From Blastocatellia bacterium (lineage in GTDB: Bacteria > Acidobacteriota > Blastocatellia > UBA7656): a DNA stretch of 64,000 bases. Positions 31,065-60,625 of the stretch are shown in pieces (the stretch's first letter is position 1; each line of letters begins with the position of its first letter). The stretch is from the NCBI GenBank assembly GCA_963765495.1, contig CAVXWP010000001.1:1248715-1312714 (forward strand), read 5' to 3'. Made by a program: the position numbers and the translations under genes. The notes under the pieces were generated by a model. It did no database searches, had not been told where the DNA came from, and saw only the letters and a list, made by a program, of their open reading frames with translations.

Positions 31065-31128
31065 TTAGACAGGAATAACAGGATTTTAATTTTGTTCAAT
31101 CCAATCAAATCCTGTTATTCCTGTCTAA
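31065..31128. repeat. 21-bp perfect inverted repeat between convergent rmlD and the 761-aa AAA+ gene (bidirectional terminator candidate)
   Basis: ttagacaggaataacaggatt (31065-31085) with aatcctgttattcctgtctaa (31108-31128). The right arm encodes the last residues LDRNNRI of the minus-strand gene. Confidence 0.75.
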
Positions 31129-33390
31129 GATTATTTGCCCGCCTTCATCAATATCTGCCTGAATCTCTACATTGGTCATATCAGCGTGCTCGATCAGAAA
31201 TCTGGCAAGCGGCGCGACTATCATTTGCTCGATGGTCCGTTGCAAAGGGCGCGCTCCGTATCGCGCATCGAATCCTTCCCTTGCCAATCGTTTGACCAGC
31301 CTTTCGGTCCACGTCAGACGAATGCCTGCCTGACTCAACCCTTCCCGCTTGGAAATCTCCGAGAGTTCCTTGCCTGTTATCGCCAGAATCTTCTCTTCGT
31401 CCAGAGCATCGAATCTGACTATACGGTCAATGCGATTGAAGAATTCCGGGCGGAAAAATGACTGCGCCTCCGCGCTGTAAGATCGCGCCGCGCTGTTGTC
31501 AAAGCCTACCTGTTGCAGCTTATCTGCTCCGATGTTGGAAGTCATTATGATGATTGCGCTGCGAAAAGTCGTAGCGCGTCCAAAGCGGTCGGTCAATCGC
31601 CCTTCATCGAAAACGCTCAACAGCACATCGAATACTTCCGGGTCGGCCTTTTCTATTTCGTCCAGCAGCACGACCGCGAACGGCTGGCGGCGCATTCGTT
31701 TTATCAATTCGCCAGGCAACCCGTCGCTATTGCTTATCAATCTTTCAGCCGCGCCCGCGCCGCTGTACTCGCTCATGTCGAGGCGGACAAGGCGATCCTT
31801 TTCTTCGCCGTGGCCAAAAATAAATTCGGAAATGCTGCGGGCAAGTTCGGTCTTTCCCACCCCCGTGGGGCCGCAAAAAAGCATGACCCCGATGGGGCGG
31901 CCGGGGTCGTTCAATCCAGCTTTGAATGTTGTGACCAGATTGGCACCCGCCCGACACGCATCCTCCTGTCCGATGATCCGGCGGCTGAAATACTCGACGA
32001 CCTCCGACCGGTTCATCGGCAAATCATCGCGGAGGAAAAGCTCGGGCAACCCCGTCTGCTTTGTGAACTGATCGGTGACAGCGTCCGCGCTCACACTCTT
32101 TGAGTGATCGAGCGAGTGCGCGAGTCGGGCGCGTTCGAACAGGTCGGACAGAAACAGAATCGTCTTTCCCGGAAATGCTTGATACGGGACGAAGCGATGA
32201 AAGAGCCTGTAGACCAGTCCCGCAAGATCGGTTTCAGCCTCGATGTTATTGCTCAATTCCAGAGACCTGATCGAACGATTGAGAATCGAGAGACTCTTTG
32301 CGCGGTCGAACGGTTCGAGATTTAAGACCTGAAACAAATCTACAAGCCCGGGCAGCAATCTGCGACAGGCGTCGAGTTCTGCGGGTGTGGCCTCGGCTAT
32401 GAGTTGAAGCTCTCCGCGCTCAAGGTAAGGCATAAGAAACGCGGCGATTGACGCCTGCGGCTCGCGGCTTGCGGTCACAATCAAATCGAGAAGGTTTCCG
32501 ACCGCGAGCGCGCCGCTTATATCTGACAGTTCCTCGATCACGCGCTCGCACCGCGCCTCCCACTGACCGAGGTACTGCATCCCGGCGATCAGTCGGCCCC
32601 CGCCGGTCAGCCAGTAGCGTTGCCGATGCGGTGTTTCGCCCTCTTCAATCTTTTCGGCCTGCCGTTCGATGCTGCGCACCGCATTGACCAGCAGCGTAGT
32701 CTTACCTGATCCCGTTTCGCCAACGATGATGACGTTTGCTTTCTCTTTGCTGATTCGCTCGGCGAGGTCCGCGACTTCGCGTTCGCGTTCCCAGGCTTGA
32801 GAATATTGCCGTCTCATGCTCGGCTCACCCAGCGGTTCGGCCACGCTTGTGAGCGTCGAAAGATCGGGCTTGTACGCGTATGAGCGCTCTTTTCTGGGTA
32901 TATGCAATACAATCTCGTCAAGCATTACGGATTTCGGCGGCAGGTAGCCGGACAACTGGAGCGGAGTCATCCCCTTCAGACTTTCCTGAACATAGGTAGT
33001 TACAAGCTCTTTCAGACTCCTGGCTTCGTAGTAATAAAACCTTATTCCGAGTATCGGCAGCGCGCAGACGAGCAGCCCGCCTTCCTGTCGTCCGTGAACG
33101 CAGGCGATGCGCAAAAGTATCGGCTCATCGCCCGGGAAGATGCGATTTTCAACGCGATACTCCGGGCGCACGGCTACCTTGAAATGCACAAGACGAGCGT
33201 CAAGGAAATCGGGCTCCGCCTGCCAGGGATACTCTTCATACATCCAGACGATATATGCTTTCAGCTGAGCCGCCGCATCAGAGAGCGTCCTGCCGACGGC
33301 CGCGACAGGCGGGTCGTATTCGACGAGGCTGGCCGTGTGGCTGCCTTCGAAGTCTTCCCAGCTAAGATATGGAAATCGGTATGTCGGCAT
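31105..33390 (-). CDS. Clp/Hsp100-like double-AAA+ ATPase, paralogue C (761 aa, no C-terminal extension)
   Basis: D1: Walker A GETGSGKT, ClpA/B-type [18 protein letters not shown], and the Walker B position reads [10 protein letters not shown]. D2: [30 protein letters not shown]. The N-terminal ~190 aa is not AAA+. Confidence 0.8.
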   Translation of the reverse strand: [761 protein letters not shown]

Positions 33391-33400
33391 CTGAATATTG

Positions 33401-36400
33401 TTAATCCTGTCTAAACTCTAAAGGCAAATCGAGCCTCGCAAGCGCGAAGGCGCGAAGCTCGTGAGCGGTTGGCAGCTTCAAGGTTATAAGCCCCGACCGC
33501 AAATCGAGCGTATGACCCTGCTCTTCATAAATGCGAATCACCGGCAGCAACCGCGTGTCACTAAATCCCCTGAGAGATGTCTTCGCCCCTTCGCCTTCGA
33601 TGACGGGCAAGACCCTCACCTGAGCAGGAAAGATGTTCTCCTGCTCGGTATAAAACAGGTGCGTGCCCTCCTCGGTCTTCGCAAGCTTTTGCGCCTGCGC
33701 CCCTGTGATGAGCAACGCGCTCGCATTGTTTTCCAAAATCTCGCCGTCATTTTCCACCCCGGTTACATCCAATCCCAACTGGTTCCCAAACAGCTTTGTG
33801 TAAAGTTTGATGAGCCTTGCGCGGATGTCGCTTCCAGATTCGCTCAACGAACGGATGTGAATGAGGGCGCGGTTGTGTTTCGGATCAACGGGATCGGCTA
33901 TCGTTTCGAGCAGGCTCGTTTCTCGAAGCGCCACCGCCAGTTGATCTTCGATCTTGTCTCCGTAAGGCGGAGAGTTCGCCGCAAGTTCGCGCAGATAGCC
34001 CTGAACGGAAGGGGCCGCGATTATCTGTTTCCACAAATCCTGCTCGTCTGTCTGTCTCAATGTCATCTGTCCGGCGGCGAGGCTCCGCCCCCTGGAGCGA
34101 GCCTCGTGTCTTTCCTCCGGTCTGTCAATTCGTTCGGCGAGGCGGCGGCTGATGTTTCGGATGCGGCGAGCCTGTTCCTGAATCAGAAAGTAGCGATACT
34201 GATCCGGCTCAATCGCCTCGGGCGTGATCGGGCCTTCGGGGCGCAGGTGCGTTACCTCCGCTTCGATTCGGTCAACCGCCAAATCGATCCGGGCAAGGAC
34301 CGCCCTCGAATCCAAAGCCTCAATTATCACTCTCAAATAATCATCGGTCCTGGCACCGATAAGCGCATCCACGCTTACGGCGAGTCCCGTCTTGTCTGGG
34401 TAGAGGCTCACGATAGTGGGCGCGTCGGGTCTGAGAAGCGCGAGTCTTGCTGCGATTGGTTGAGTCAGTTGCTGTTCGAGCGCCCGCTTCAAGGCTCGCG
34501 CGCCCAGTTGCGGGTGGTAGCCCTCGTCTATGATTCGCTCCATCGCGCGCTCGTCCACACGAAGCACGCATTTTCTTCTGACGAGCCCCTCGCGGGCAAA
34601 GACTTCTTGAATAAGCGTTTGCGCGATCTTTCCTACATCTTCGCGGCGCAGCCTTTCGAAAGGGATCACGCGATCAAGCCGATTGAAGAATTCAGGCTTG
34701 AAGAATTTCTCGGCAGCCTGAATGTATGCCGATGCCTCGCGCGCGTGGTCCTGCCGAAAACCGAGATTGCTGCTCGCCTCTCTCACGCCGAGATTTGAAG
34801 TCATAATCAGGATCGCGTTTGTGAAATCTGCGGTGCGCCCGAGTGCGTCGGTCAATCGCCCGTCGCCCATCACCTGTAGCAGCAGATTGAACACATCGGG
34901 GTGGGCCTTTTCTATCTCGTCGAGCAGAACCACGGCGAAGGGGCGGCGGCGTATTGCGCTCGTCAGCAGACCCTCCGGCTGATCGAACGTGCCTACGAGG
35001 CGAGCCACCGAATAGGCCGAAGAGTATTCGTTCATGTCGAAACGCAGCATCTTATCGGCGTCGCCGAACAGATAACGCGCCACAGACTTTGCGCATTGCG
35101 TCTTGCCTACGCCGGTGGGGCCGAGGAAAAGGAAGGAGGCAATCGGGCGGTTGGGGTCGTTGAGTCTGGCTCTGGCTACGCACACGGCATCGGTAACGGC
35201 CTCGATGGCCTCGGTCTGCCCGATCACTTCATTGCCAATCGCCTCTATCACATCCCAGCGTTCGAGGCTTGCGCGGTTGCTCAAAAAAGTCATCCGAAGC
35301 CCGCTTTTTGCGTGGAATTCTTCGAGCACGGCTTCTCGAAGTATGCCTATGTTGCGGTACTTCACCGCGAGTTGATTTAGGAAAGCGGCGGCCTTGCCCG
35401 GAAACGCCGCGTCGCGCACATAGCGGCGCTCAAGATCGAGCACGGCGGGCAATACCTCTATGGCGAAATGGCAGTTGTGTTGTTGTTCGAGTCTTCTGAT
35501 CAGGCTGATGAGTATGCGAATCACATCACCTTCACCCGGCTCTCTTACCTGAATTACATGGAACAGATCGGCAAAGCCGCGATCTTTTTCCTGGAGAACG
35601 CGATAGGCTTCCGGGGTTATTTCGGCAAGCAGGCGAAATTGCCGCTTCTCGACAAATGGTTTCAATACGTCGGCCACGCTGAGAGTCGAACTGCTCGTCA
35701 CACCCGCATGAAAGAGTCCCAACAGGTCATCGAAGTAAAGTGTATGCTCGCGCTTTTCGGCTTCTTTCAGGATTGCGAGCAATCTGTTTTCCCACTGGCC
35801 TACATAAGACATGCCGGAGATGAGCCTCTGCGGAGAAAGCAGCCAGAGGTTTCTCTTTGACGAGTACCGCGATTTTTTTCGCGCCACTTTCTGATAGACA
35901 TACTCGTGAATGATGGCGGTCTTCCCAACCATTCGCGGACCCGCGAGCAGAACCGGGCGTTTGTCGACTCCCGAAAGCAGTCTGGTGATTTCTTCCACCT
36001 CGCGGTCGCGGCAGATCACCCGGCTCAACTCGTCAGGGAAGAGATGGTCAAGGCATCTGCCTACGGTGTCAAGCTCGGTCTCTCCGTCAAGCTCGGCGCT
36101 TGTGGTGAGAGCAGCGAATATCAATTCCTGTGGCGGCGTGGCTAACTGAGGCGGATGAATATCAAGATCGAGCGTAGTGACCCATGCCTTTCCTTCGACC
36201 GACATCTCTTCGGGTTTTGGCGCGCTCTTGGGGTCTCTCTTCTCCTTTTCACGGAAGTAGAGGACCAGATTTTCCGTAGCCCTGTCGGCGAGCGTCTCTC
36301 CCCGGCCCACTTCAAACCATAGATCGGGCACGCTCGGCGAAAAGGCCACCTTTCGGTCAAGCGCTTCGAAGGTAGCGATCAGGAAACGGCAGGCGACTTT

Positions 36401-36667
36401 ACGGCTCCCCAGATCGAGCACGAGCTTGAGCAGGTGATCTTCCACGACGGGTGAGAAAGAAAAGGCGGCTAATTCTTCGTGGCGCATCGACTTGCCCAGC
36501 CGCTTGATCTCCTCTCTGAGGTCCTTGACGAGTCTGTTCACAGTGCGGTTCAGGTCTTCGCCTCTCGCCACGGGGTCGGAAAAAAAGAGCGGGCGAACAG
36601 TGTAGAGGGGGGCGGGCGTCCCTTCGGGAGACAGCTTCTCGATGTAAAGAGGAATCGTGATGTTCAT
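33401..36667 (-). CDS. Clp/Hsp100-like double-AAA+ ATPase, paralogue B (1088 aa) with a release-factor-like C-terminal module
   Basis: D1: [34 protein letters not shown]. D2: [37 protein letters not shown]. About 300 aa of extra C-terminal sequence. Confidence 0.8.
   Translation of the reverse strand: [1088 protein letters not shown]
33404..34315 (-). other. Class-I release-factor-like module (domains 1, 2 and 4; GGQ domain absent) at the C-terminus of paralogue B
   Basis: Residues ~785-1088. [45 protein letters not shown] parallels RF1 [70 protein letters not shown] parallels [43 protein letters not shown] parallels [19 protein letters not shown]. No GGQ motif. Confidence 0.5.
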
Positions 36668-36722: not shown

Positions 36723-39700
36723 TTATGTCGCAAAGAGCGAATTTGCGTCTTTGATGATGCGCTGTTCGATGGCCCCGCTTATTGCCTCGCTGATCTCCTG
36801 CCAGGAAAGCTTCTTCCTTAGCGCCGTGTCTTCGATGACAAACTCTTTCTGATTGAACAGGCGGCGTTTCTCTTGCGCTCCAACCGAGCCGCGTCGCTCA
36901 AGCCCCGCCGGAGGCTGATAACCGGCTATGGCTGCCTCGCTCGTGTGAACAAGGCAGGGCGTAGATTGTTTCTCTTCGACAAACAGATGCAGACCGCGCT
37001 CGGGCTCGTATCTGGGATAGGCGAGCGGCGCGCTTATCCCAAGCGCGATACCGACTACTTCCTTCCGGGCCGAGGCAAAAAATTCCTTTACATTCTCAAC
37101 CTTCTGTTTGATTGTCGGGCGTCCGAGCAGTTCGAACATCTCGATCTGTTGTTCGCTCTTGTCGCCCCTCTTTTGATCCGAATCGGTTGCCTGGCTTGCG
37201 AACTTGAAGACCTGAAGACTGGCCCCGATGTTATTGGCTGCGCGGCAGTATGCTTCCGCCAGTTCGAACAGCCATTTTGGATTTTCGCCGTAGACGGCAA
37301 GCGTGGCATAATCCGGCTTCTTGAATTGCAACGCGTATATGCAAAGCAGCACCTCGTCCCACTCTCCAGACAGCGCCAATAACAGGGCCGCAAGCTTTTC
37401 TTTCTCGCCACTCACCCGGCCGTAGACTGCAAGTAATGCTTTGTCTTCGAGGGCCGATATCTTTTCCATAAACGACTTCAACCGATCCATTCCGAGCTTG
37501 AGTCTGGGAAGTTGAGCCAGTCTCTCCATATCTTCGGCTCGTTTCCAGCCTTGCCCGGAGACTCTCTTTTTGAGTCGTTCAAGATTGAATATTTCGTTTT
37601 GCGCCTCAAGTACCGCCGGGCTGTGCTCAAGCCTCTGAGAGTTGCGGCGAATCTCGGCCACCTCTCTTGCGATCTCGCCCAATCCCCGGTCGGCTCTGGC
37701 GGCGAGCCGTTTGCTTTCGTCTTCCTTTCTCAGTTGCGCGGCAATTGAGAGCCGGTCGCCCTCTACGCCGACATCGGCTGAGAGCGATTCATTCGAAGAT
37801 TGCGTGTTCAAGACTTCGGCAAGCGGGACAAGAAGCTCGCGCTCGATTACTCGCTTCAAGGGGCGCGCACCATAACGCGAATCGTACCCTTTGCGCGCAA
37901 GATAGCCCGCCACATCATCTGCAATATTCAGCCCGACCGCGCGATAAAGTATGCCGTCGCGGTTCTTGAGCAACTCAAGCTCGCGTTTGGCAATGCTCAG
38001 AATAGTCTGCTCGTCGAGCGGAGCAAAGGGCACTATCCGATCTATGCGGTTGAAGAATTCGGGCCGGACAAAGGCGCGAACTTCGCTCAGAAAATGTTCG
38101 CGCGCCCTTGCCGCTTCATCCGACTCTTGCCCGAATCCTATGGAAGAACGCCGGAAAGATTCGGCCCCGAGATTGCTCGTCATGATGACAACCGAATTCG
38201 AGAAATCGGCCACACGTCCCTGCGCGTCGGTCAGCCGGCCTTCGCCAAGAACCTGAAGCAGCAGATCGAAAAACGACGGGTGAGCCTTTTCGAATTCATC
38301 CAGCAGGACCACGGCAAAGGGCTGCTCGCGCACTTTCGAAGTGAGCAATCCTTCCGCCCCCCAGACGCCGCCTATCAGGCGAGTGACCGCAAGCGGGCTG
38401 GCGTATTCGCTCATGTCGAATCTGATCATCCTCTCTTTGCTGCGGAAGAGAAACTCGGCAAGCGAGCGTGCCATCTCCGTCTTACCCACGCCGGTTGGCC
38501 CAATAAACATCAGCGATGCGATAGGCTTGCGCGGGCGAGCGAGCCGCGCCCTCACAATGGCGAGCAAATCCACGATGAGCGATACGGCATCCATTTGCCC
38601 GATCACCCTTTCGGCGAACCATTTCGCAGTCTCGCCCAGATCGAGCCTTTCAGTCGGATTCAACAGAAACAGCGGCAGCCCTGTCTCATTCGAAAAGGCA
38701 TTAATCACATCTTCAACCGAAAGCGGCTTCCCCGGCTCGCGGTCCTCAAAGAGGTTCCTGAGAAAACGTAACGGGCGACCGGGATAAGCCGAGTAGGTAG
38801 CGTACCTGCGATGCAGGCGATCGGTTGTTTCTAAGCCGTCAATATCTATGGCTACATCTTTAGGGCCGCTCGATTGGAGGGCATAACCGAGGAGGATGGC
38901 TTTGCCCTTTTCAATTGAAGGCTCTTCAATCTTGATTTGCGAAAACGCTTCGAGCAGTTGAGGGTCGTCGCGCTCGATTACGGGCAATTGCTCGGACGTG
39001 CATTCAGAGACGGCGAGCAAATCCCCCCGGCTGATGTAGGGGCGAAGGAAGGCGGCTATACCCTGGCTGCCGGATGCGCTTTTCCCAACCTCCATGAGTT
39101 CAAGGAGATTTCCAAGATGAAGTATCGCCTTCTGTTTCGATGCTTCGCGCCACAGCCGCCCGCAGCGCTCCTGCCACATGCCAAATCCCGACATGCCTGC
39201 TACCAGACGCGAGCCGCTCGTGGCCCAGAATGGAGTGCGACCCAGATTGAAATCGTGCCGTCGTCTGACCAACTCGTGCAAGGCTGCGGTCTTGCCTACG
39301 CCCGACGGCCCAACCAGCAATACGCTGCGCGGATTGCTCCCGGCCAGGGCTTCGGCTATGCGCGTCACGGTGTCGTCGAGTTCAAATCTCTGAGCCAGGC
39401 GCTCGCGTGTCAGATCGGTAGCGACCACATCGAGGACAGATTTATTCTCCTCTTTTCTCCCTTCGGACCCGTCCGCGATCTGTTTCGGAGCACGGATTGT
39501 AGCCGTGACGCTTGTCTGATCAAGCATCGTCATGCGATTTCTCTGAAGCCAGATGAGGTCTCCGAGCGAACCCGCCTTCTTGATTCTGAGCAGGTGCGCG
39601 TGGATGTTTGATGAAACCACCTGCTCGAACGTGTCGGGATCGCGCTCGACTACAAGTATGCCAAGCGCCGGAACATAAGCGAGATAACCATCATCGGCAT

Positions 39701-40016
39701 GTTGCCAGCGAATCAGATCAAAGCTCAATCGCGCAGGCTCGCGCCAGGCAACGGACCGCGAAGGGGGATCGAGGTGGATGGTTACTTCGTCGATTTCAGG
39801 GCTGATCCCAGAAGGGTCCGCGCCGCGCCTCATGTGCAGCGCGAGCGGCGGCGAGGTCTCAAGTATTCGAATCGCGTTTGCCTTGAGCGCATCAAGCAAC
39901 TTCTTTGCGTCGGCGCCGTATCGGGACACTTCCGGGAAGAAGAGCGTCTCGCTGATAAAGGTATCATTTTCCAGGCGTTGAATTATTGCTGTAAGACGAA
40001 AATCATGTTTTGGCAT
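36723..40016 (-). CDS. Clp/Hsp100-like double-AAA+ ATPase, paralogue A (1097 aa) with a release-factor-like C-terminal module
   Basis: D1: [26 protein letters not shown], and the Walker B position reads [11 protein letters not shown]. D2: [37 protein letters not shown]. About 320 aa of extra C-terminal sequence. Confidence 0.8.
   Translation of the reverse strand: [1097 protein letters not shown]
36726..37694 (-). other. Class-I release-factor-like module (GGQ domain absent) at the C-terminus of paralogue A
   Basis: Residues ~775-1097. [39 protein letters not shown] parallels RF [63 protein letters not shown] parallels the ISG..Y..L..E.GGHRV pattern. [15 protein letters not shown] parallels [34 protein letters not shown] parallels [19 protein letters not shown]. 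No GGQ. Confidence 0.5.
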
Positions 40017-42982: not shown

Positions 42983-43155
42983 TAGGCAGTAGGCAGTTAT
43001 TATGAAGCCATGATCAGATCCGCGTAAATCCGCCCGACCCGCGTCCGTCCTGGCCTATTTCTATTCGCCCGATTATGCAGTTGCAATTAGACTGACAATT
43101 GGCTTCACTCAACTGCCCACTGCCCACTGCCTACTGCTTACTGCCTACTGCCTGC
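42979..43155. repeat. Heptamer-built palindrome (GCAGTAG type) between convergent fabG and htrA
   Basis: Left arm gtagtaggcagtaggcagtt (42979-42998, starting in the fabG stop codon). Right arm aactgcccactgcccactgcctactgcttactgcctactgcctgc (43111-43155). Loop ~110 nt. Confidence 0.8.
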
Positions 43156-44690
43156 TAATCAAATGTTACCGTGATGAAAGTCATCTGCCCGCCGCGTTCG
43201 ATTTGAAGCGCTACCTGATTGGTCTTGATCGAATTTATAGCTTCGACCAGGTTTTCGACGGATGTTACTTCCACGGTGTCTATGCGGTGAATGACATCGC
43301 CGTGACGGATACCCGCCTCGGAAGCGGGGCTGCCGGGCGCTACGGATTGGACCATCGCGCCGTGCGGCACACTCAGCTTCATTTGCTCGGCCATTTCGGG
43401 TGTTACGGTCTCGGCGGTTATACCAAGCCGCGTGGATTGAGGGTGCGCCTCATCGCCCTGGCTTTCAGAGTCGTTGCGAGCCGTATTGACATCTGCCGGA
43501 CGTTCGGTGACTTCTACTTTGGCCGAAAGCGGCTGCCCGTTTCGCACATAATCGACCTGCGCAGATTCGCCCACGGAAGTTTCGGCTACGACCTCCATCA
43601 ACTCTCGTGGCGTTCTCACTTTCTTACCGTTAAAGGCAAGTATCACATCCCCGCTCTGCAATCCTGCGTGGCCGGCGGGGCTTTGAGGATCGCTCAGGCG
43701 ATCAATCAACACGCCGGAATTCGGTTCCAGATTGAGCGCGTGGGCCGTGGCTTCGTCGAGCGGCCTGATAATCACCCCGAGGTATCCGCGAGTGACCTTG
43801 CCGTTTTTGACCAGTTTGTTAAAGACATTACGCACCACGTTTGATGCAATGGCAAAACCGATACCCACGCTGCTGCCCGTCTGGGAAAATATCAAGGTGT
43901 TTATGCCGATCACTTCTCCCTGCATGCTGACGAGCGGACCGCCGGAATTTCCCGGATTGATCGAGGCATCGGTCTGGATAAAGCGGCTGTATTGAGAGCC
44001 GCGAGTGTTAAGCTCGCGCCCGGTAGCTGAGACAATGCCTGCGGTCAGGGTTTGCGCCAGCCCGAAAGGGCTTCCGAGAGCCAGCACCCAGTCGCCCTGT
44101 TCGACTTCATCCGAATCTCCGAGCGTGGTCGTGGGGAGTCCATCGCCTTCGATCTTGATGACGGCGATGTCGGTCTCGGGGTCCGTGCCTACGAGTTTCG
44201 CTCGTATGGTGCGTCCGTCGGCAGTCGTCACTTCGATCCTGTCGGCGTGGCCCACTACGTGATCGTTCGTCAATATATACCCGTCGGGTGTGACGATAAA
44301 CCCCGAGCCTGTTCCGGGCCTTCGCCTGGGGGTGTTCTGATCGGGGCTGCCGAAGTTGAACAGATCGGGCAAGCCGGACTCACGCGAAACTGTTTCGACT
44401 ACGTTGATGTTGACGACGGCGGGCTTTATAGCCTTTGCAATCTCGCGGAACGAAACTGATAGCTCGACCGGCGAAGGAGCCGCAACCGAATTGGCCGTTC
44501 CTGGTGGAGGAAGCACCGGAACGTTTGAAGCGATTTTGTGAGTCGATGAACGCGCGATGGCGAATATAATAAAACCTGAAATCAGGGCGAGCGTGACCCA
44601 TATCCATGCCTGATCTCTCCATCGCCTGCCTCTAGGTTTCGGGGTTTGATCTTCGGGGTAAGGTTCTGTTCCGGTGTTTATGTCTTGCAT
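43155..44690 (-). CDS. HtrA/DegP/DegQ-family periplasmic serine protease with two PDZ domains
   Basis: 511 aa. N-terminal TM/signal segment. Catalytic TNDHVV, D and GNSGGPL. Two PDZ-like regions (GVLIDRL...GLQSGDVI and GAMVQSV...GIRHGDVI). Confidence 0.85.
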   Translation of the reverse strand: MQDINTGTEPYPEDQTPKPRGRRWRDQAWIWVTLALISGFIIFAIARSSTHKIASNVPVLPPPGTANSVAAPSPVELSVSFREIAKAIKPAVVNINVVETVSRESGLPDLFNFGSPDQNTPRRRPGTGSGFIVTPDGYILTNDHVVGHADRIEVTTADGRTIRAKLVGTDPETDIAVIKIEGDGLPTTTLGDSDEVEQGDWVLALGSPFGLAQTLTAGIVSATGRELNTRGSQYSRFIQTDASINPGNSGGPLVSMQGEVIGINTLIFSQTGSSVGIGFAIASNVVRNVFNKLVKNGKVTRGYLGVIIRPLDEATAHALNLEPNSGVLIDRLSDPQSPAGHAGLQSGDVILAFNGKKVRTPRELMEVVAETSVGESAQVDYVRNGQPLSAKVEVTERPADVNTARNDSESQGDEAHPQSTRLGITAETVTPEMAEQMKLSVPHGAMVQSVAPGSPASEAGIRHGDVIHRIDTVEVTSVENLVEAINSIKTNQVALQIERGGQMTFITVTFD

Positions 44691-44818
44691 TAACTTCAGC
44701 CCTTTCTAAACGACGGTAACTTATCTTCAAGATTAGCTGTTAAGAAGAATCAACGCAACCATCTGATAGAGTTGGGTGGAGGCAGGGCCATTAAATTCTC
44801 AGGAAAAACTTTGCCTAC

Positions 44819-44876
44819 TTTGCGTCTTTGCGACTTGCGAAGCCACAGGTACTTTCAAAGACGCAAAGACGCAAAG
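44819..44876 (-). terminator. Heptamer-built hairpin (CTTTGCG type), terminator candidate for the HK-RR operon
   Basis: ctttgcgtctttgcg (44819-44833) pairs with cgcaaagacgcaaag (44862-44876). On the minus strand it is followed by GTTTTTCC. Confidence 0.6.
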
Positions 44877-44953
44877 AGATTTCATTTAGCAAGTCGTAGT
44901 TTTCTGCTGCTCAGCAGGCTTGGCCAGGAATTAAATTGTCCTGGAGTGGAAAT

Positions 44954-45060
44954 GATGCGTGATACGTGATACGTGATTTTCAGACTGGCCGCAGATTCAA
45001 GACAACTTGCAAGCCTGCTAAATCACGCATCACGCATCACGTATCACTATCGCATCACGA
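44954..45060. repeat. Heptamer-built palindrome (GTGATAC/GTGATGC type) just downstream of the response-regulator gene
   Basis: Left arm gatgcgtgatacgtgatacgtgattt. Right arm aaatcacgcatcacgcatcacgtatcac...cgcatcacga. The loop contains cttgcaagcctgct. Confidence 0.8.
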
Positions 45061-45062
45061 AT

Positions 45063-46454
45063 TCATACCAGCTGGTCGGTCACCCTTCGCGAGCGGGTGA
45101 GGCCGTAGGTCTTCAGTTGCCGGTAGAGCGTGCTTGGCGAGATGCCAAGTATTTCGGATGCTTTCCCCTGATGCCATCCCGTCTGCTCAAGTACCGTGAG
45201 TATCTGTTTCTTCTTCAACTCGTCGAGATTGCCCGGTTGGATGTCTTCATCCACAAATCCCGTCTGACGGCTTGAACTGTGAGTGCGAATCTCGATGGGC
45301 AAATCTTCCGGGAGAATCAGGTTGTCGCTTGCCAGTATGATCGCGCGCTCTATGACGTTCCGCATCTCGCGCACATTGCCGGGCCAGGAATAATTTATCA
45401 TTACCTCCATAGCCTCTTCGCTGATCTGAAAACTGCTGCCCCCGCTCACTCGCCCCAGGAAATGTTCCGCGAGCGAAGGGATGTCTTCGGGCCGTTCCCT
45501 GAGCGGTGGCAGGAGGATTGTAAAATTGTTTATGCGGAACAGGAGATCGGATCGGAATTTGCCTTCCGCCACATACTGATTCAGATCGCGATTGGTCGCG
45601 GCCACAAACCGCACGTCCACCTCGACTTTTCTGGTGCCGCCCACGCGGAAAAAGGTCTGAGTTTCAAGCACGCGCAACAGCTTGGACTGAAGCGTCAGGT
45701 TCATCTCGCCTATCTCATCCAGAAAGAGCGTGCCGCCGTGCGCAAGCTCCAACAGCCCGAGCTTTCGCTTTCGCGCTCCGGTGAATGCGCCTGCTTCATA
45801 GCCGAACAGTTCGCTTTCGAGCAACGTCTCTTGAATCGCCGCGCAGCTTATATCGATAAACGGCCCTTCGCGCCGGTTTGAAAAGCAATGAATAGTGTTG
45901 GCCACAAGTTCTTTGCCGGTCCCGGATTCTCCTGTCACAAGTACCGTGGCATTCGAGACGGCTACCTTCCTGACAAGCGACATCACATCGAGCATCTTCT
46001 TGCTGCGAACGACGATGTCGGGCGCTTTCTCTTTGTAAGTCAGCCGGGATTGAAGTATCAGGTTTTCACGTCGAAGCTGGCGTTTCTCGTATGCCTTGCA
46101 GAGTATGGCTTCAAGCTCGCGGATATGGCACGGCTTTGTGAGGTAGTCGTATGCTCCAAGCTTCATGGCCTGAAGCGCGGTCTCTACCGTGGCATGCCCG
46201 GTCATCAGAAGAACTTCTGGAGGCTGTTCCATCTGTCTGAGTTCGCGAAGAACGTCTATGCCGCCACGCACGGGCATCATTATATCGAGCAAGGCGACGT
46301 CGAATTCGCTCTCTCGCGCTACCTTGAGGGCCGCCTCTCCGTCGTGGACGAGCGTGACCTGATGGCCAAGTCGTAACAACTCTTTCTGAAGGACCAGCCC
46401 CAGATTCTTTTCGTCCTCCGCGATCAGAAGTTTTATACTTGCATTTGAACTCAC
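45063..46454 (-). CDS. Sigma-54-dependent response regulator (NtrC family)
   Basis: 463 aa. REC domain (VALLDIMMP), AAA+ GESGTGKE, GAFTGA motif and a C-terminal HTH (ASEILGISPSTLYRQLK). Confidence 0.9.
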   Translation of the reverse strand: MSSNASIKLLIAEDEKNLGLVLQKELLRLGHQVTLVHDGEAALKVARESEFDVALLDIMMPVRGGIDVLRELRQMEQPPEVLLMTGHATVETALQAMKLGAYDYLTKPCHIRELEAILCKAYEKRQLRRENLILQSRLTYKEKAPDIVVRSKKMLDVMSLVRKVAVSNATVLVTGESGTGKELVANTIHCFSNRREGPFIDISCAAIQETLLESELFGYEAGAFTGARKRKLGLLELAHGGTLFLDEIGEMNLTLQSKLLRVLETQTFFRVGGTRKVEVDVRFVAATNRDLNQYVAEGKFRSDLLFRINNFTILLPPLRERPEDIPSLAEHFLGRVSGGSSFQISEEAMEVMINYSWPGNVREMRNVIERAIILASDNLILPEDLPIEIRTHSSSRQTGFVDEDIQPGNLDELKKKQILTVLEQTGWHQGKASEILGISPSTLYRQLKTYGLTRSRRVTDQLV

Positions 46455-49117
46455 TGTACACCCTCCATTCTAATTACTTCTCCTTCGAATAATTCGTGCG
46501 AACTCACCGGCTCTTCCTCAAAAGACAGGGGCAGTAAGACTTTGAACGTGCTGCCTACGCCTTCGGTCGAATCGACTTCCATCTTCCCTCCGTGTTCTGA
46601 AACGATGCCGTAGCAGACCGAAAGACCAAGACCCGTACCTCTGCCGAGGGGCTTGGTTGTAAAGAAAGGATCGAAAATCTTTTGCAGATGAGGAGCCGAT
46701 ATCCCACAACCCGTGTCCGTAAATTCGACCGATACGTTACGCTCGGGGCTCGCTTCGCTCCAGCCCGTTTTTATCGTCAGCGTGCCGTTGCCCTCCATCG
46801 CGTCGAAGGCGTTTGAGATCAAAGCGATGAATACCTGTTTCATCTGCCCTTCGTTGACCTGGACGGGCGTAAGCGTTTCATCGAGCAGTTTGACGACATT
46901 CATCTTGCCGAGCTTCGGATGATGTTTGATCAGTTGCAGCGTCTGCTCGATGATCTGATTGATATCGCTCGAAAGTTTTTCGGCCTGGCGCTGATGCGAG
47001 AAGTCGAGCAGGCTGTTTGTGATCGTCTTGCATCTGAAGGCTTCGTCCCGAACGATTTGCAGATATTCACTGAAATCCTGATTCAATTCCTGATCCTGCA
47101 ATTCGTCTACGCGGGCGGTCAGCGCCTCGGCGCAGGCCGCTATGGTCGCAAGCGGGTTGTTAAGCTCGTGGACAACGCCCGCGGCAAGCCTCCCGATCGA
47201 GGCAAGCTTTTCGGCGTGAATGACCGCCTCGTTCATCTTCTTTTGCTCGGTCACGTCTTCGCCTACGGTGATGACGTGAGTGACCTCGGCGTTATCTACG
47301 CGCATGGGTATTTTACTGATCTTCCAGACCTTCTTATGGCCTTCGACGAAAGACTCCTGCTCCATGCGGACCATTTCGCCGCTACGGAACACATCTACGA
47401 ATTCGCCTTCGAGTTTGCGGCGCGGCTGGCGCGTCAGGACGTGAAAGACGTTTCGCCCGAGGACTTCATCGCGACTGATGCCCCGGCCTCCGACCTCGCG
47501 ATTCCGGTTCCAGGCCACGATGCGCATATCGCGATCCACCACGTAAAGCGAGACGGGAAGCGAGTCAATTATCTTTTCGGTAAACCGTTTCTGTTCTTCG
47601 ATCTCTCGCGTGCGGCGGCTCACCTCGACCGCAAGGTTTATGGAAGTGTCTTTTGTGCTTTGATAGACCTCTGTATTTCTGATGGCGAGGCTGAGTTGCT
47701 GGGCGACGGCTCCGAGCAGTTTTTGATCGTCTGCGCTGAAAGGGCGTGGAGCGTGGCTTGCGCAAATGAGCGCGCCAAGCAGCGATTCATCGAAGATGAG
47801 CGGCACTATGGTTTCGATTGAAATATTCGGATCGCGCAGGAGGCGCTCTCTGACGCGGGTTTCAATGGTGGACTGGCCACCGAAATCCGAGCCCAGATAA
47901 CTCATCGCGCGCTCTTCGTTATACCAGTTGTTTGCCCCGTATTTCTCTTCGAGCGAGCGCGCGTAAATAGCCGAAGCGAGGCTTTCGGGTTCGTTTGCGG
48001 CCCGGACTACGACGGCGCAGATGTCGCATTCGAGGCTCTTGCCTACGCTGAAGACCGCATAGCCGAGCAACTCGTCCATTTCGAGCGAGGTCATGAGGTT
48101 GTTGCCGAGGTTATAGACAAAAGAAAGTTGAGCGGCGCTCTTTCTGGTTTCGACATATAGCCGGACATTTTCGAGCACGACGCTCAACTGATTGCAGATG
48201 GTTGTAAGCAACTCCGATTGCTGTTCGGGAAAACCCTTATGAGTGCGAGAGAACAGGCAAATCGCCCCGATGGCTTTGTCTTTTACACCTAAGGGGGCGC
48301 ATACGACGCTTTGAATCTTGCTCAACAGTTCCCCGGAAAACCCTTTGCGGGCGGAATCGGGGCGAAGTTCCAGCACTAAAGACCTGCCGTTCATCATCGG
48401 CGCGGTCTTCGAATAAAGGTCGAGCAGAGAGTGTCGGCTTTCATCATCGCCCGGGAAGCCTTCTGAGGCTACCACGTTCATGGACTGATTATCGTGATTT
48501 CTGAGGTAAACGACACCGGCATCGGCATTAAGATTCTTGACCAGGACCGCGAGCGTGCCTTTTATCAGGACATCGGGTTCGAGCGAGCTTGCAAGCACGC
48601 TTGAAACCGCGTGGAGAACATTCAATTGCTCGAATTTCTCTCTTAACTCGCGTTCGTTGCGATGGCTGCGAAGCTGCGCCTTTATACGCGAAAGCAACTC
48701 GGTCCTTTGATAAGGCCGGGTGATGTAATCGCTCGCGCCCGCGTTCAGGCAGGCCACTTTATCCTGCGGACGATGGCTCTTCGATATTATCGCTACGGGA
48801 AGCTCGGCGGTCGCCCGCGTCTGACGTATCTGTTTACAGAAGTCGAGCGCTTCCTGCGCCCAATTCAACCGCCGCAGGCTTTCGCCCGAATCGTCTTCGG
48901 CAGGCTCTATAGCTTTGGCCGCGATGCGAGATGCGTATATATCAATGATTACGAGCGAGACCTCGTTGGTATTGAGGAATTCTCGCGCCTCCTCGAAAGA
49001 GACGAACGTGTTTGATGTATAGCCTGTCGCCTGAAGCAAACGTTCTATTGCGCGGGCAGATTTGGCCTCATCTCCCAAAATCAGGAGGCGATCTGCTGAT
49101 TCGCCCTGGCTGGACAT
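46451..49117 (-). CDS. Cytoplasmic hybrid sensor histidine kinase (REC, GAF x2, PAS, HisKA, HATPase)
   Basis: 888 aa with no TM segment seen. N-terminal receiver-like domain (LVIIDIY...ISK), H-box HELNNPLATI and G2 box GTGLGLSV. 4-nt overlap with the RR gene. Confidence 0.8.
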   Translation of the reverse strand: MSSQGESADRLLILGDEAKSARAIERLLQATGYTSNTFVSFEEAREFLNTNEVSLVIIDIYASRIAAKAIEPAEDDSGESLRRLNWAQEALDFCKQIRQTRATAELPVAIISKSHRPQDKVACLNAGASDYITRPYQRTELLSRIKAQLRSHRNERELREKFEQLNVLHAVSSVLASSLEPDVLIKGTLAVLVKNLNADAGVVYLRNHDNQSMNVVASEGFPGDDESRHSLLDLYSKTAPMMNGRSLVLELRPDSARKGFSGELLSKIQSVVCAPLGVKDKAIGAICLFSRTHKGFPEQQSELLTTICNQLSVVLENVRLYVETRKSAAQLSFVYNLGNNLMTSLEMDELLGYAVFSVGKSLECDICAVVVRAANEPESLASAIYARSLEEKYGANNWYNEERAMSYLGSDFGGQSTIETRVRERLLRDPNISIETIVPLIFDESLLGALICASHAPRPFSADDQKLLGAVAQQLSLAIRNTEVYQSTKDTSINLAVEVSRRTREIEEQKRFTEKIIDSLPVSLYVVDRDMRIVAWNRNREVGGRGISRDEVLGRNVFHVLTRQPRRKLEGEFVDVFRSGEMVRMEQESFVEGHKKVWKISKIPMRVDNAEVTHVITVGEDVTEQKKMNEAVIHAEKLASIGRLAAGVVHELNNPLATIAACAEALTARVDELQDQELNQDFSEYLQIVRDEAFRCKTITNSLLDFSHQRQAEKLSSDINQIIEQTLQLIKHHPKLGKMNVVKLLDETLTPVQVNEGQMKQVFIALISNAFDAMEGNGTLTIKTGWSEASPERNVSVEFTDTGCGISAPHLQKIFDPFFTTKPLGRGTGLGLSVCYGIVSEHGGKMEVDSTEGVGSTFKVLLPLSFEEEPVSSHELFEGEVIRMEGVQ

Positions 49118-49290
49118 ACGGATGCCTGCTTTAGATGCGGGGCTGCGGGGTGGTTTTAGGGGCTTGCCAAATTGATTGAAGCGGGGCCAATTTAAGTCAT
49201 TTTGACGGATGTGTCAACACAATAATGAAAAGGTGAGGGCAGGTTTTAAAAGGTGAAGACCTGTTTTAAGGCGAGTATCAAACGTGGATC

Positions 49291-49411
49291 GATGCGTGGA
49301 GCGTGATGCGTGAAGGGTGATGCGTGATTTAGCAGGCCTGCAACATGCTTTTGACATGCAGGCTCCTTAAAATCACGTATCACGCATCACTCTTCACTTT
49401 CCACGCATCAC
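49291..49411. repeat. Heptamer-built palindrome (GTGATGC type), inverted orientation relative to the 45.0-kb copy; abuts the recA stop
   Basis: Left arm gatgcgtggagcgtgatgcgtgaagggtgatgcgtgattt. Right arm aaaatcacgtatcacgcatcactcttcactttccacgcatcac. The loop agcaggcctgcaac is the reverse complement of the gttgcaggcctgct-like loop at 45.0 kb. Confidence 0.8.
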
Positions 49412-50469
49412 TCTTTTGGCGCGGCTTTGCGAGAAGAAGTCTTCGCTTCGGTCTCCGGCTCTTGAACCTGTTCCGGGAGTCCGAGCGCCTGACGCACTTC
49501 GGTCTCGATCCGGGCAGCCATTTCAGGCTCAGACTTGAGAAGGTTTTTGACGTTTTCGCGTCCCTGCCCGAGCCGCTCGCCTTGAAAGCTGAACCAGGCT
49601 CCGCTTTTATCCACTATTTTGTGAGTGACGGCAAGGTCCAGAAGATCGCCTTCGTGCGATATTCCCTGACCATACATAATGTCGAATTCGGCCTCCTTAA
49701 ACGGAGGGGCCACCTTATTCTTGACTACCTTGACCCTCGTGCGGTTGCCGACTACCTGATCGCCGTCTTTTATGGAGCTGGTTCGACGAATATCGAGTCT
49801 GACCGAGGAGTAGAATTTCAGGGCGCGACCGCCTGTAGTGGTTTCAGGCGAGCCGAACATTACGCCTATCTTTTCGCGAATCTGGTTGATAAAAATAAGC
49901 GTGGTATTCGAGCGCGCCACGACGGCCGTCAGTTTCCTGAGCGCCTGAGACATCAACCGCGCCTGCAAACCCGGCAGCGAATCTCCCATGTCGCCGTCGA
50001 GTTCGGCGCGCGGCACAAGGGCTGCGACCGAATCTATTACCAGCACATCAACGCCGTTTGACCGGACGAGCGCTTCGGTGATCTCAAGCGCCTGCTCGCC
50101 GGAATCAGGTTGCGAGATAAAGAGGTCGTCTACTTTGACCCCGAGTCTTCCGGCATACTCGGCATCCATCGCGTGTTCGGCGTCAATATAGGCGGCAACG
50201 CCTCCCTGTCGTTGCGCCTGCGCGACAATATGGAGGGCGAGCGTAGTCTTGCCGCCTGATTCGGGGCCGTATATCTCGACTATGCGCCCGCGCGGCACGC
50301 CGCCTACCCCGATTGCTGCGTCCAGGCTCAGACACGATGTAGAGATGGTCGGAACATCGACTACCTTTTTCTCTCCGAGTCGCATGATCGAGCCTTTGCC
50401 AAATTGTTTTTCAATATGCGCAATCGCTGCGTCAATTGCGCGGTTTCTCTCCGCACGTTCATCTGCCAT
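49408..50469 (-). CDS. recA: Recombinase A
   Basis: 353 aa. [14 protein letters not shown], Walker [18 protein letters not shown] and [14 protein letters not shown]. Confidence 0.97.

Positions 50470-60549: not shown

Positions 60550-60625
<76 letters not shown>

Follow-up and report, generated by a model that had tools for sequence, protein, structure and literature searches.

Clp/Hsp100-type ATPases from a conserved bacterial operon carry release-factor-like tails without the catalytic GGQ domain

The bacterial class-I release factors (RFs) RF1 and RF2 (PrfA and PrfB) are built from a helical domain 1, a beta-sheet superdomain composed of domains 2 and 4, and a domain 3 that carries the GGQ motif. 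Outside this family, the RF-like A-site protein Dom34/Pelota, itself catalytically dead, works with the ribosome-splitting ATPase ABCE1. Vms1, described as a peptidyl hydrolase, works with Cdc48 (PMC6514570). PrfH and ArfB, RF paralogs specialised in ribosome rescue, derive from RFs and have been put to use on ribosomes in non-canonical states. Both keep the GGQ domain and have shed other parts (PMC6514570). Burroughs and Aravind describe RF domain 1 as a GTPase-interacting domain, and the catalytic domain of bacterial RFs as one that is inserted in the codon-recognition domain (PMC6514570). Here we analyse a 64,000-nucleotide stretch of the genome of a Blastocatellia bacterium (assembly GCA_963765495.1, contig CAVXWP010000001.1, positions 1,248,715 to 1,312,714), referred to below as the window, which contains three tandem minus-strand open reading frames (ORFs) for Clp/Hsp100-type double-ring ATPases, named A, B and C. 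We find that the last 344 residues of B (residues 745-1088) are almost certainly homologous to bacterial class-I RFs, and closest to RF2. There is very little doubt that this tail consists of RF domain 1 followed by the codon-recognition superdomain (domains 2/4), in the order of an RF and minus domain 3, making it the architectural inverse of PrfH and ArfB.

The relationship is hidden from searches with single sequences. The B tail on its own gives no PCRF (PF03462) or RF-1 (PF00472) match in Pfam or NCBIfam, even at E<=10, phmmer with the same single tail finds no match among PDB chains, a word-indexed homolog search returns two proteins only, and Pfam scans of 46 B tails taken singly yield PCRF in none of them. 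An exhaustive search with a tail profile collects 419 clusters at 50% identity, whose full-length members are 1070-1150 aa long with the tail beginning at about residue 745. A profile of 46 B tails yields 13 matches among 177,635 PDB sequences, and the first 12 places are taken by RF2 and RF1, with Thermus RF2 in the lead (E=7.7e-8) and RF1 reaching 9e-5. The principal alignment lies on RF2 residues 22-187; in a separate, weaker stretch IRSYV..KDHRTG is matched by VvRiY..DLRsG of the tails. The RF-like tail has thus gone unannotated because single-sequence Pfam and NCBIfam searches miss it, the homology being visible only through family profiles.

Structure prediction leads to the same family. 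An AlphaFold2 model of the B tail, computed with the 46-tail alignment, reaches a mean predicted local distance difference test (pLDDT) of 92.3 and a predicted template modelling score (pTM) of 0.90; an earlier model from a 3-sequence alignment (pLDDT 49) was kept out of the fold search. All of the top 50 Foldseek matches of the model in the PDB are class-I RFs (RF1, RF2, mtRF1 and, as 9mor_A, PrfH), with a best E of 1e-6 and a probability of 1.00. Template modelling (TM) scores are 0.22-0.36, low values that are expected because a whole domain of about 90 residues is missing and the domain orientations differ. The predicted secondary structure runs from a helical bundle (domain-1-like helices at 43-60, 77-104, 134-154 and 162-180 in tail numbering) through beta-alpha-beta-beta-alpha-beta-beta and a short linker to beta-beta-beta-alpha, corresponding to RF domains 1, 2 and 4. 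By hhalign, an alignment of 88 B tails pairs with E. coli RF1/RF2 in 248 columns that reach from residue 4 to residue 346 of RF1 and are interrupted by one large gap; the domain-1-like part aligns from RF2 residue 22 and RF1 residue 4 onward, and the domain-4-like part aligns with RTYNF..TDHR of RF1. A first-pass annotation, made from the letters of the window, had assigned 33404-34315 to the C-terminus of a 1088-aa AAA+ protein and had read there the landmarks of RF1/RF2 in order. The interval is indeed residues 785-1088 of the minus-strand ORF 33401..36667, every peptide that was quoted from B is present in the translation, the RF1 strings set against them agree with the genuine E. coli prfA product (NC_000913), and hhalign reproduces the pairing block by block. 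That annotation had looked both to a Pfam match with PCRF or RF-1 and to a predicted fold like that of an RF; the Pfam match is absent, whereas the fold matches RFs and the family profile matches RF2. The features of the three genes are as follows.

36723..40016, minus strand: gene A, 1097 aa, directly upstream of B; an ORF with AAA_2 matches
33401..36667, minus strand: gene B, 1088 aa, an atypical two-ring Clp/Hsp100 ATPase with an RF-like tail; the protein under study
31105..33390, minus strand: gene C, 761 aa, which lacks an RF-like tail, its last domain being the D2 small domain
39387-40016 (A), 36038-36667 (B) and 32791-33390 (C), minus strand: N-terminal domains of about 200 residues, with no Pfam match for any of the three
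36038..36667, minus strand: N-terminal domain of B, residues ~1-210, with no Pfam match (single sequence) or PDB match (17-sequence profile)
35273..36025, minus strand: first AAA+ module (D1) of B, from alignment to E. coli ClpA and ClpB and family statistics
34433..35254, minus strand: second AAA+ module (D2) of B with its small domain, from Pfam, alignment to ClpA/ClpB and PDB relatives
33896..34309, minus strand: RF domain-1-like helical bundle of the B tail, residues 787-924, from the AlphaFold2 helices and RF alignment
33605..33883, minus strand: RF domain-2-like part of the B tail, residues 929-1021, from the profile, AlphaFold2 and hhalign
33659..33673, minus strand: E-x-G-x-H motif of the B tail, residues 999-1003
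33542..33604, minus strand: linker of B that replaces RF domain 3, 21 residues, 1022-1042, from motif spacing and the hhalign gap
33404..33541, minus strand: RF domain-4-like part of the B tail, residues 1043-1088 (VIRIY...DLRSG...helix)
36726..37790, minus strand: RF-like tail of A without domain 3, residues 743-1097, from a 28-sequence profile and hhalign

The loss of domain 3 is seen in the spacing of motifs that RFs and the tails share. From E-x-G-x-H to R-x-Y there are 128-129 residues in E. coli RF1/RF2, with GGQ in between, versus 44 in B of the window; the median is 63 in the B family (range 34-87) and 45 in the A family, and the B-family linker at this site is variable. The hhalign gap falls over RF1 residues ~212-300, the position of domain 3, and about 85 residues of this domain, including the GGQ motif, are absent from the B tail. 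The proposal of the first-pass annotation that the GGQ domain had been removed, leaving domain 1 and the 2/4 superdomain, is therefore borne out by the spacing and the gap as well as by the profile and fold searches, and its remark that no PxT or SPF stop-codon tripeptide is evident holds for the A and the B tails alike. In the B family the equivalent loop, which follows E-G-H, is shorter and variable, and the G-x-x-E columns at the tip of helix alpha5 are unconserved. Given that domain 3 with GGQ, the PxT/SPF loop and the G-x-x-E tip are all missing, we predict with high confidence that the B tail is incapable of peptide release and unlikely to read stop codons; the module is an RF homolog, not a release factor. 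A GGQ tripeptide does turn up in a few tails (4 of 88 in the B family, 9 of 117 in the A family). These tripeptides sit in helices or in a switch-loop-like segment and never in domain 3, and for this reason we rejected them as catalytic relics. Six A homologs (P0228, P0232, P0247, P0248, P0259 and P0269) have GAIGGQ in the switch-loop-like segment where the consensus is GAIGHQ, a site that is not homologous to the catalytic loop.

Paralog A, whose tail the first-pass annotation had not mentioned, very probably ends in an RF-like module of its own, which is very divergent and likewise without domain 3, and C has none. A 3-sequence profile of A tails finds nothing in the PDB, and a 28-sequence profile was required: its top 7 matches are Thermus RF2 (best E=1.7e-5), with further matching pieces at GVHRLVR and RSYVLDKNYVKDH, and it also catches GCN4 coiled coils at E ~0.01. 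By hhalign, A tails align with RF1/RF2 over 247 columns with the same domain 3 gap. Between the two tail families hhalign gives E=7.5e-4 over 93 columns, a separation as wide as that of the tails from RFs. BLASTP with the two tails reports a 13-residue match only, and a homolog search with the A-tail profile returns only 4 proteins. Pfam scans of single sequences give weak PCRF matches in 3 of 28 A tails (best E=0.0034), and PF00472 is not matched in the family scans. The 1139 relatives of A at E<=1e-50 go by no names other than 'AAA family ATPase', ClpA or ClpC, and none of the database relatives carries a precomputed PCRF or RF-1 match. Judged from sequence, the A tail is more RF-like than the B tail. 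In the window it keeps E1006-G1008-H1010 and the strand CLVHTSE, the family retaining CLV-x-TSE where RFs have R-x-HTS; of the alpha5-tip G-x-x-E only the Glu is kept, by 105 of 117 sequences; and a segment under strong conservation, RRGaIGxQEkRRxYN (RRGxIGxQEKRRxYN), aligns with the switch loop and RTYNF of RF1. This switch-loop-like segment is among the best-conserved stretches of the A tail, with R311/R312 at 98-99%, Q308 at 74% and Y314 at 87%.

The ATPase core to which the tails are attached belongs to the Clp/Hsp100 group, with departures of its own. A, B and C have AAA_2 matches between 1e-40 and 1e-48 and ClpB_D2-small matches in Pfam (for B, AAA_2 at 1e-48, ClpB_D2-small at 3e-12, and AAA_lid_9 in D1); two AAA+ modules, a D2 of AAA_2 type and ClpB_D2-small are thus all present, as in Hsp100/Clp class 1. 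In NCBIfam all three proteins remain far under every equivalog cut-off, B scoring 393 bits against the ClpB model TIGR03346, whose cut-off is 1232, and its ClpB and ClpA scores both being about 390 bits. The nearest solved relatives of B by PDB sequence are ClpB, ClpC, ClpE and ClpA (E<=1e-85), of which only ClpA aligns end to end, without an M-domain; D2 is 39-45% identical to ClpB. Walker A of D1 is intact in all members (in B, G243-T250), and the aromatic residue of the D1 pore loop is kept, as G[FY]G in A, [YF]VG in B (Y288 in the window) and YLG in C. The Walker B DE, on the other hand, has become GN in A (103 of 111 matched sequences) and DD in B (27 of 29 matched; D313-D314 in the window), and in C it is GN in the window copy and EN or DN in other loci. 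Alignment to E. coli ClpA/ClpB shows non-basic residues in all three where ClpA has its RR arginine fingers, so that neither the DE nor the arginine fingers of a catalytically competent D1 are found in A, B or C. Because Walker A is intact while the Walker B Glu and the arginine fingers are gone, D1 most likely binds nucleotide, probably ATP, without hydrolysing it. Walker A and B of D2 are canonical (in B, G516-T523 and D583-E584), and D2 would almost certainly be the sole competent motor of the three proteins. The first-pass description of the motor needs correction for D1, and for the D2 pore loop as well.

The term 'disaggregase', used in the same description, is unsupported. There is no insertion at the site of the ~120-residue M-domain of ClpB, and in A, B and C the pore loop of D2 falls 5 residues short of the GAPPGYVGYEEGG stretch of ClpB and lacks GYVG; of the M-domain and GYVG D2 pore loop that mark ClpB/Hsp104 disaggregases, neither is found. 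Where E. coli ClpA has the IGL tripeptide of its ClpP-docking loop ([ILV]G[FL], after sensor-1), the three proteins carry an hGF tripeptide that is not universal in the family, namely IGF (A), LGF (B; L635-G636-F637) and VGF (C). Pfam detects no Clp_N domain in A, B or C, and an N-domain of about 200 residues stands in its place. Homology between the A and B copies is seen by hhalign (E=1e-4), and a 17-sequence profile of the B N-domain has no match in the PDB. PF20030, listed for two homologs, was considered as a clue to the N-domain and rejected, being a weak MoxR-type AAA match that falls in D2. With ClpA, ClpC, ClpE and ClpB these proteins have in common their pair of AAA+ modules and the small domain of D2. 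They are set apart by the missing Clp_N, a D1 without the Walker B Glu and arginine fingers, a D2 pore loop without GYVG, a 340-residue RF-like tail and the presence of three co-operonic paralogs.

The three tightly spaced genes very probably form a conserved operon. In the window C starts 10 nt past the stop codon of B, and the A-B-C arrangement occurs in 6 loci from two phyla, Acidobacteriota and Verrucomicrobiota: besides the window, an Acidobacteria metagenome-assembled genome (MAG; L001), a Verrucomicrobiia MAG (L002) and three more contigs (L003, L011 and L012), with genes that are tightly spaced or overlap (overlap in L012). The paralogs are roughly equidistant at 37-39% identity (38% between the ATPase cores of A and B), and when an acidobacterial genome is compared with a verrucomicrobial one, the orthologs of A, of B and of C each show 43-46% identity; this divergence across two phyla, together with the equidistance of the paralogs, indicates that the triplication is old. 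A-type genes with RF-like tails also occur without adjacent B or C (L004 10001-13390, L013 10001-13399 and L014 10001-13270), and here A either acts alone or has partners encoded elsewhere. The flanks of the operon are never conserved and differ in each locus. A toxin-antitoxin-like UPF0175 and DUF3368 pair lies between B and C in L003 (17081-17822) and a few kb upstream of the operon in L011 (6716-7451). A scan of metagenome loci gave no confirmed relatives. Within the window, plus-strand ORFs of up to 445 aa (for example 33461-34798) run antisense to the ATPase genes over 31-40 kb, at about 56% G+C, and are read as non-coding shadows of the coding strand. Further along, at 43155-50469, translations judged by eye suggest an HtrA/DegP-like protease, an NtrC-type response regulator with a sensor kinase, and recA, and Rfam places one transfer RNA at 60550-60622. 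These surroundings look like ordinary chromosome without a link to the operon, and Rfam and promoter/terminator scans found nothing tied to it.

What, then, may a Clp/Hsp100 ATPase do with the body of a release factor? We propose, at somewhat less than an even chance, that A, B and C co-assemble and that their RF-derived tails dock on ribosomes and recruit the D2 motor there. The three proteins would form one hetero-hexameric ring in which D1 is the scaffold and D2 the motor, and the tails would be arms that dock at the A site or the decoding centre of the ribosome, or close by. Candidate targets would be ribosomes that are stalled, that have an empty A site lacking its normal ligand, or that are hibernating or damaged. 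The switch loop of RFs faces the decoding centre, and given its conserved switch-loop-like segment the A tail would be the likelier reader. Docking would bring the D2 motor to the ribosome, either to unfold or extract a ribosome-bound protein or to split the subunits, and the hGF loops might pass substrate on to ClpP for degradation. We favour docking because the retained parts are the ribosome-binding body of an RF, domain 1 included, because the catalytic insert has been cleanly removed with the flanking strand and the domain 4 motifs left in place, and because A conserves a loop equivalent to the one that in RFs faces the decoding centre.

By analogy, A/B/C could be a functional counterpart of Dom34/Pelota-ABCE1 and Vms1-Cdc48, which we hold to be nearly as probable as not. 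In those systems an RF-like protein of the A site works together with an ATPase, which takes ribosomes apart or pulls material out of them. They differ in that their module has the unrelated aeRF1 fold and in that module and ATPase are separate partner polypeptides, whereas here an RF body is covalently fused to a Clp/Hsp100 ATPase; the parallel concerns a possible working mode, not family membership. More tentatively still, A/B/C may be an ATP-driven bacterial machine for rescuing or dismantling ribosomes, in which GGQ-less arms sense an aberrant A site and a Clp motor splits or extracts. The tails could stem either from deletion of domain 3 or from an RF form that preceded its insertion, the latter being possible because the catalytic domain of RFs has been described as an insertion (PMC6514570).

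Several observations weigh against docking and against the ring as drawn. The codon-reading elements are lost in B. The best-conserved residues of its tail, E255, G257, H259, R301, D311 and R313 in tail numbering (90-100% in the B family, with E255/G257/H259 at 93-99%), belong to the E-G-H, R-x-Y and D-x-R motifs, which are common to all RFs and probably form the core of the fold; the most-conserved residues of both tails being this structural core, they argue for the fold and not for contact with the ribosome. Clp substrates usually enter at D1, and the tails are attached at the C-terminal (D2) end of the ring, not on the substrate-entry face. A strict pattern detects the hGF tripeptide in only 67 of the 117 sequences of A and in 32 of the 43 of B. 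Among the neighbours in the loci examined there are neither translation-related genes nor clpP. The lone A genes of three genomes weaken the case for an obligate hetero-hexamer.

The main rival to ribosome docking is exaptation of the fold: the tails would descend from RFs and, with no remaining link to ribosomes, now serve the ATPase ring as an assembly domain, a regulatory domain or an adaptor or substrate-binding domain. We regard this as a real possibility, if a doubtful one. It would account for the restriction of shared conserved residues to the fold core, for the disappearance of the stop-codon-reading motifs, for the divergence of the A and B tails from each other to the extent of their divergence from RFs, and for an operon without translation genes nearby. 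It accounts less readily for the persistence, across hundreds of lineages, of all three ribosome-binding domains in RF order along some 300 residues, for the excision of the catalytic insert and nothing else, and for the strongly conserved loop that A keeps at the switch-loop position.

Two further explanations are minor. The operon might belong to a conflict or defence system, an anti-phage or stress-triggered effector whose RF mimicry blocks or dismantles the ribosomes of the cell or of an invader. Such a role would suit flanks that vary in every locus and the UPF0175/DUF3368 pairs of two loci, and the AAA_2 core partially matches PDC-M37B and DolB in PADLOC; RF-fold proteins of the aeRF1 superfamily have also been tied to conflict systems (PMC6514570). 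The PADLOC matches, however, are confined to the generic ATPase core, no nuclease or other effector is attached, tblastn against 72,556 plasmids and 50,697 phages gives no match, and the identity of orthologs across phyla together with the equidistant paralogs fits an old chromosomal system, so that we consider a defence role improbable. That the tails are helical or coiled-coil extensions which look like RFs by chance or composition is very improbable: the B tail as a single sequence has no Pfam, NCBIfam or PDB match, TM-scores are low and the A-tail profile picks up GCN4, but two independent tail families each retrieve RF2 first, Foldseek returns RFs exclusively at the top, the aligned region extends beyond helices to the beta-rich domains 2/4 with their signature motifs, and low TM-scores are what the missing domain and altered orientations would give.

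To our knowledge, no bacterial relative of class-I RFs has been described in which the domains that bind the ribosome are retained and the catalytic one is dropped, nor has a Clp/Hsp100 unfoldase with a built-in translation-factor mimic. A full-text literature search and the main survey of RF evolution (PMC6514570) yielded no description of a Clp-RF fusion, an absence there that is not proof. Both components are known already; what is new is their fusion, a bacterial RF body without GGQ and the proposed ring of three paralogs with its probably dead D1 tier. Should the tails turn out not to dock, there is still a large family of 419 clusters that holds a whole RF body hidden from standard annotation, along with the proposed three-paralog Hsp100 ring. 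Acidobacteriota are abundant, slow-growing soil bacteria, and the system is found in them and in some Verrucomicrobiota. If the tails do dock, these bacteria would possess a new way to control the quality of their ribosomes, to recycle them or to turn them over, one that would run parallel, by convergence, to the Pelota and Vms1 systems of archaea and eukaryotes.

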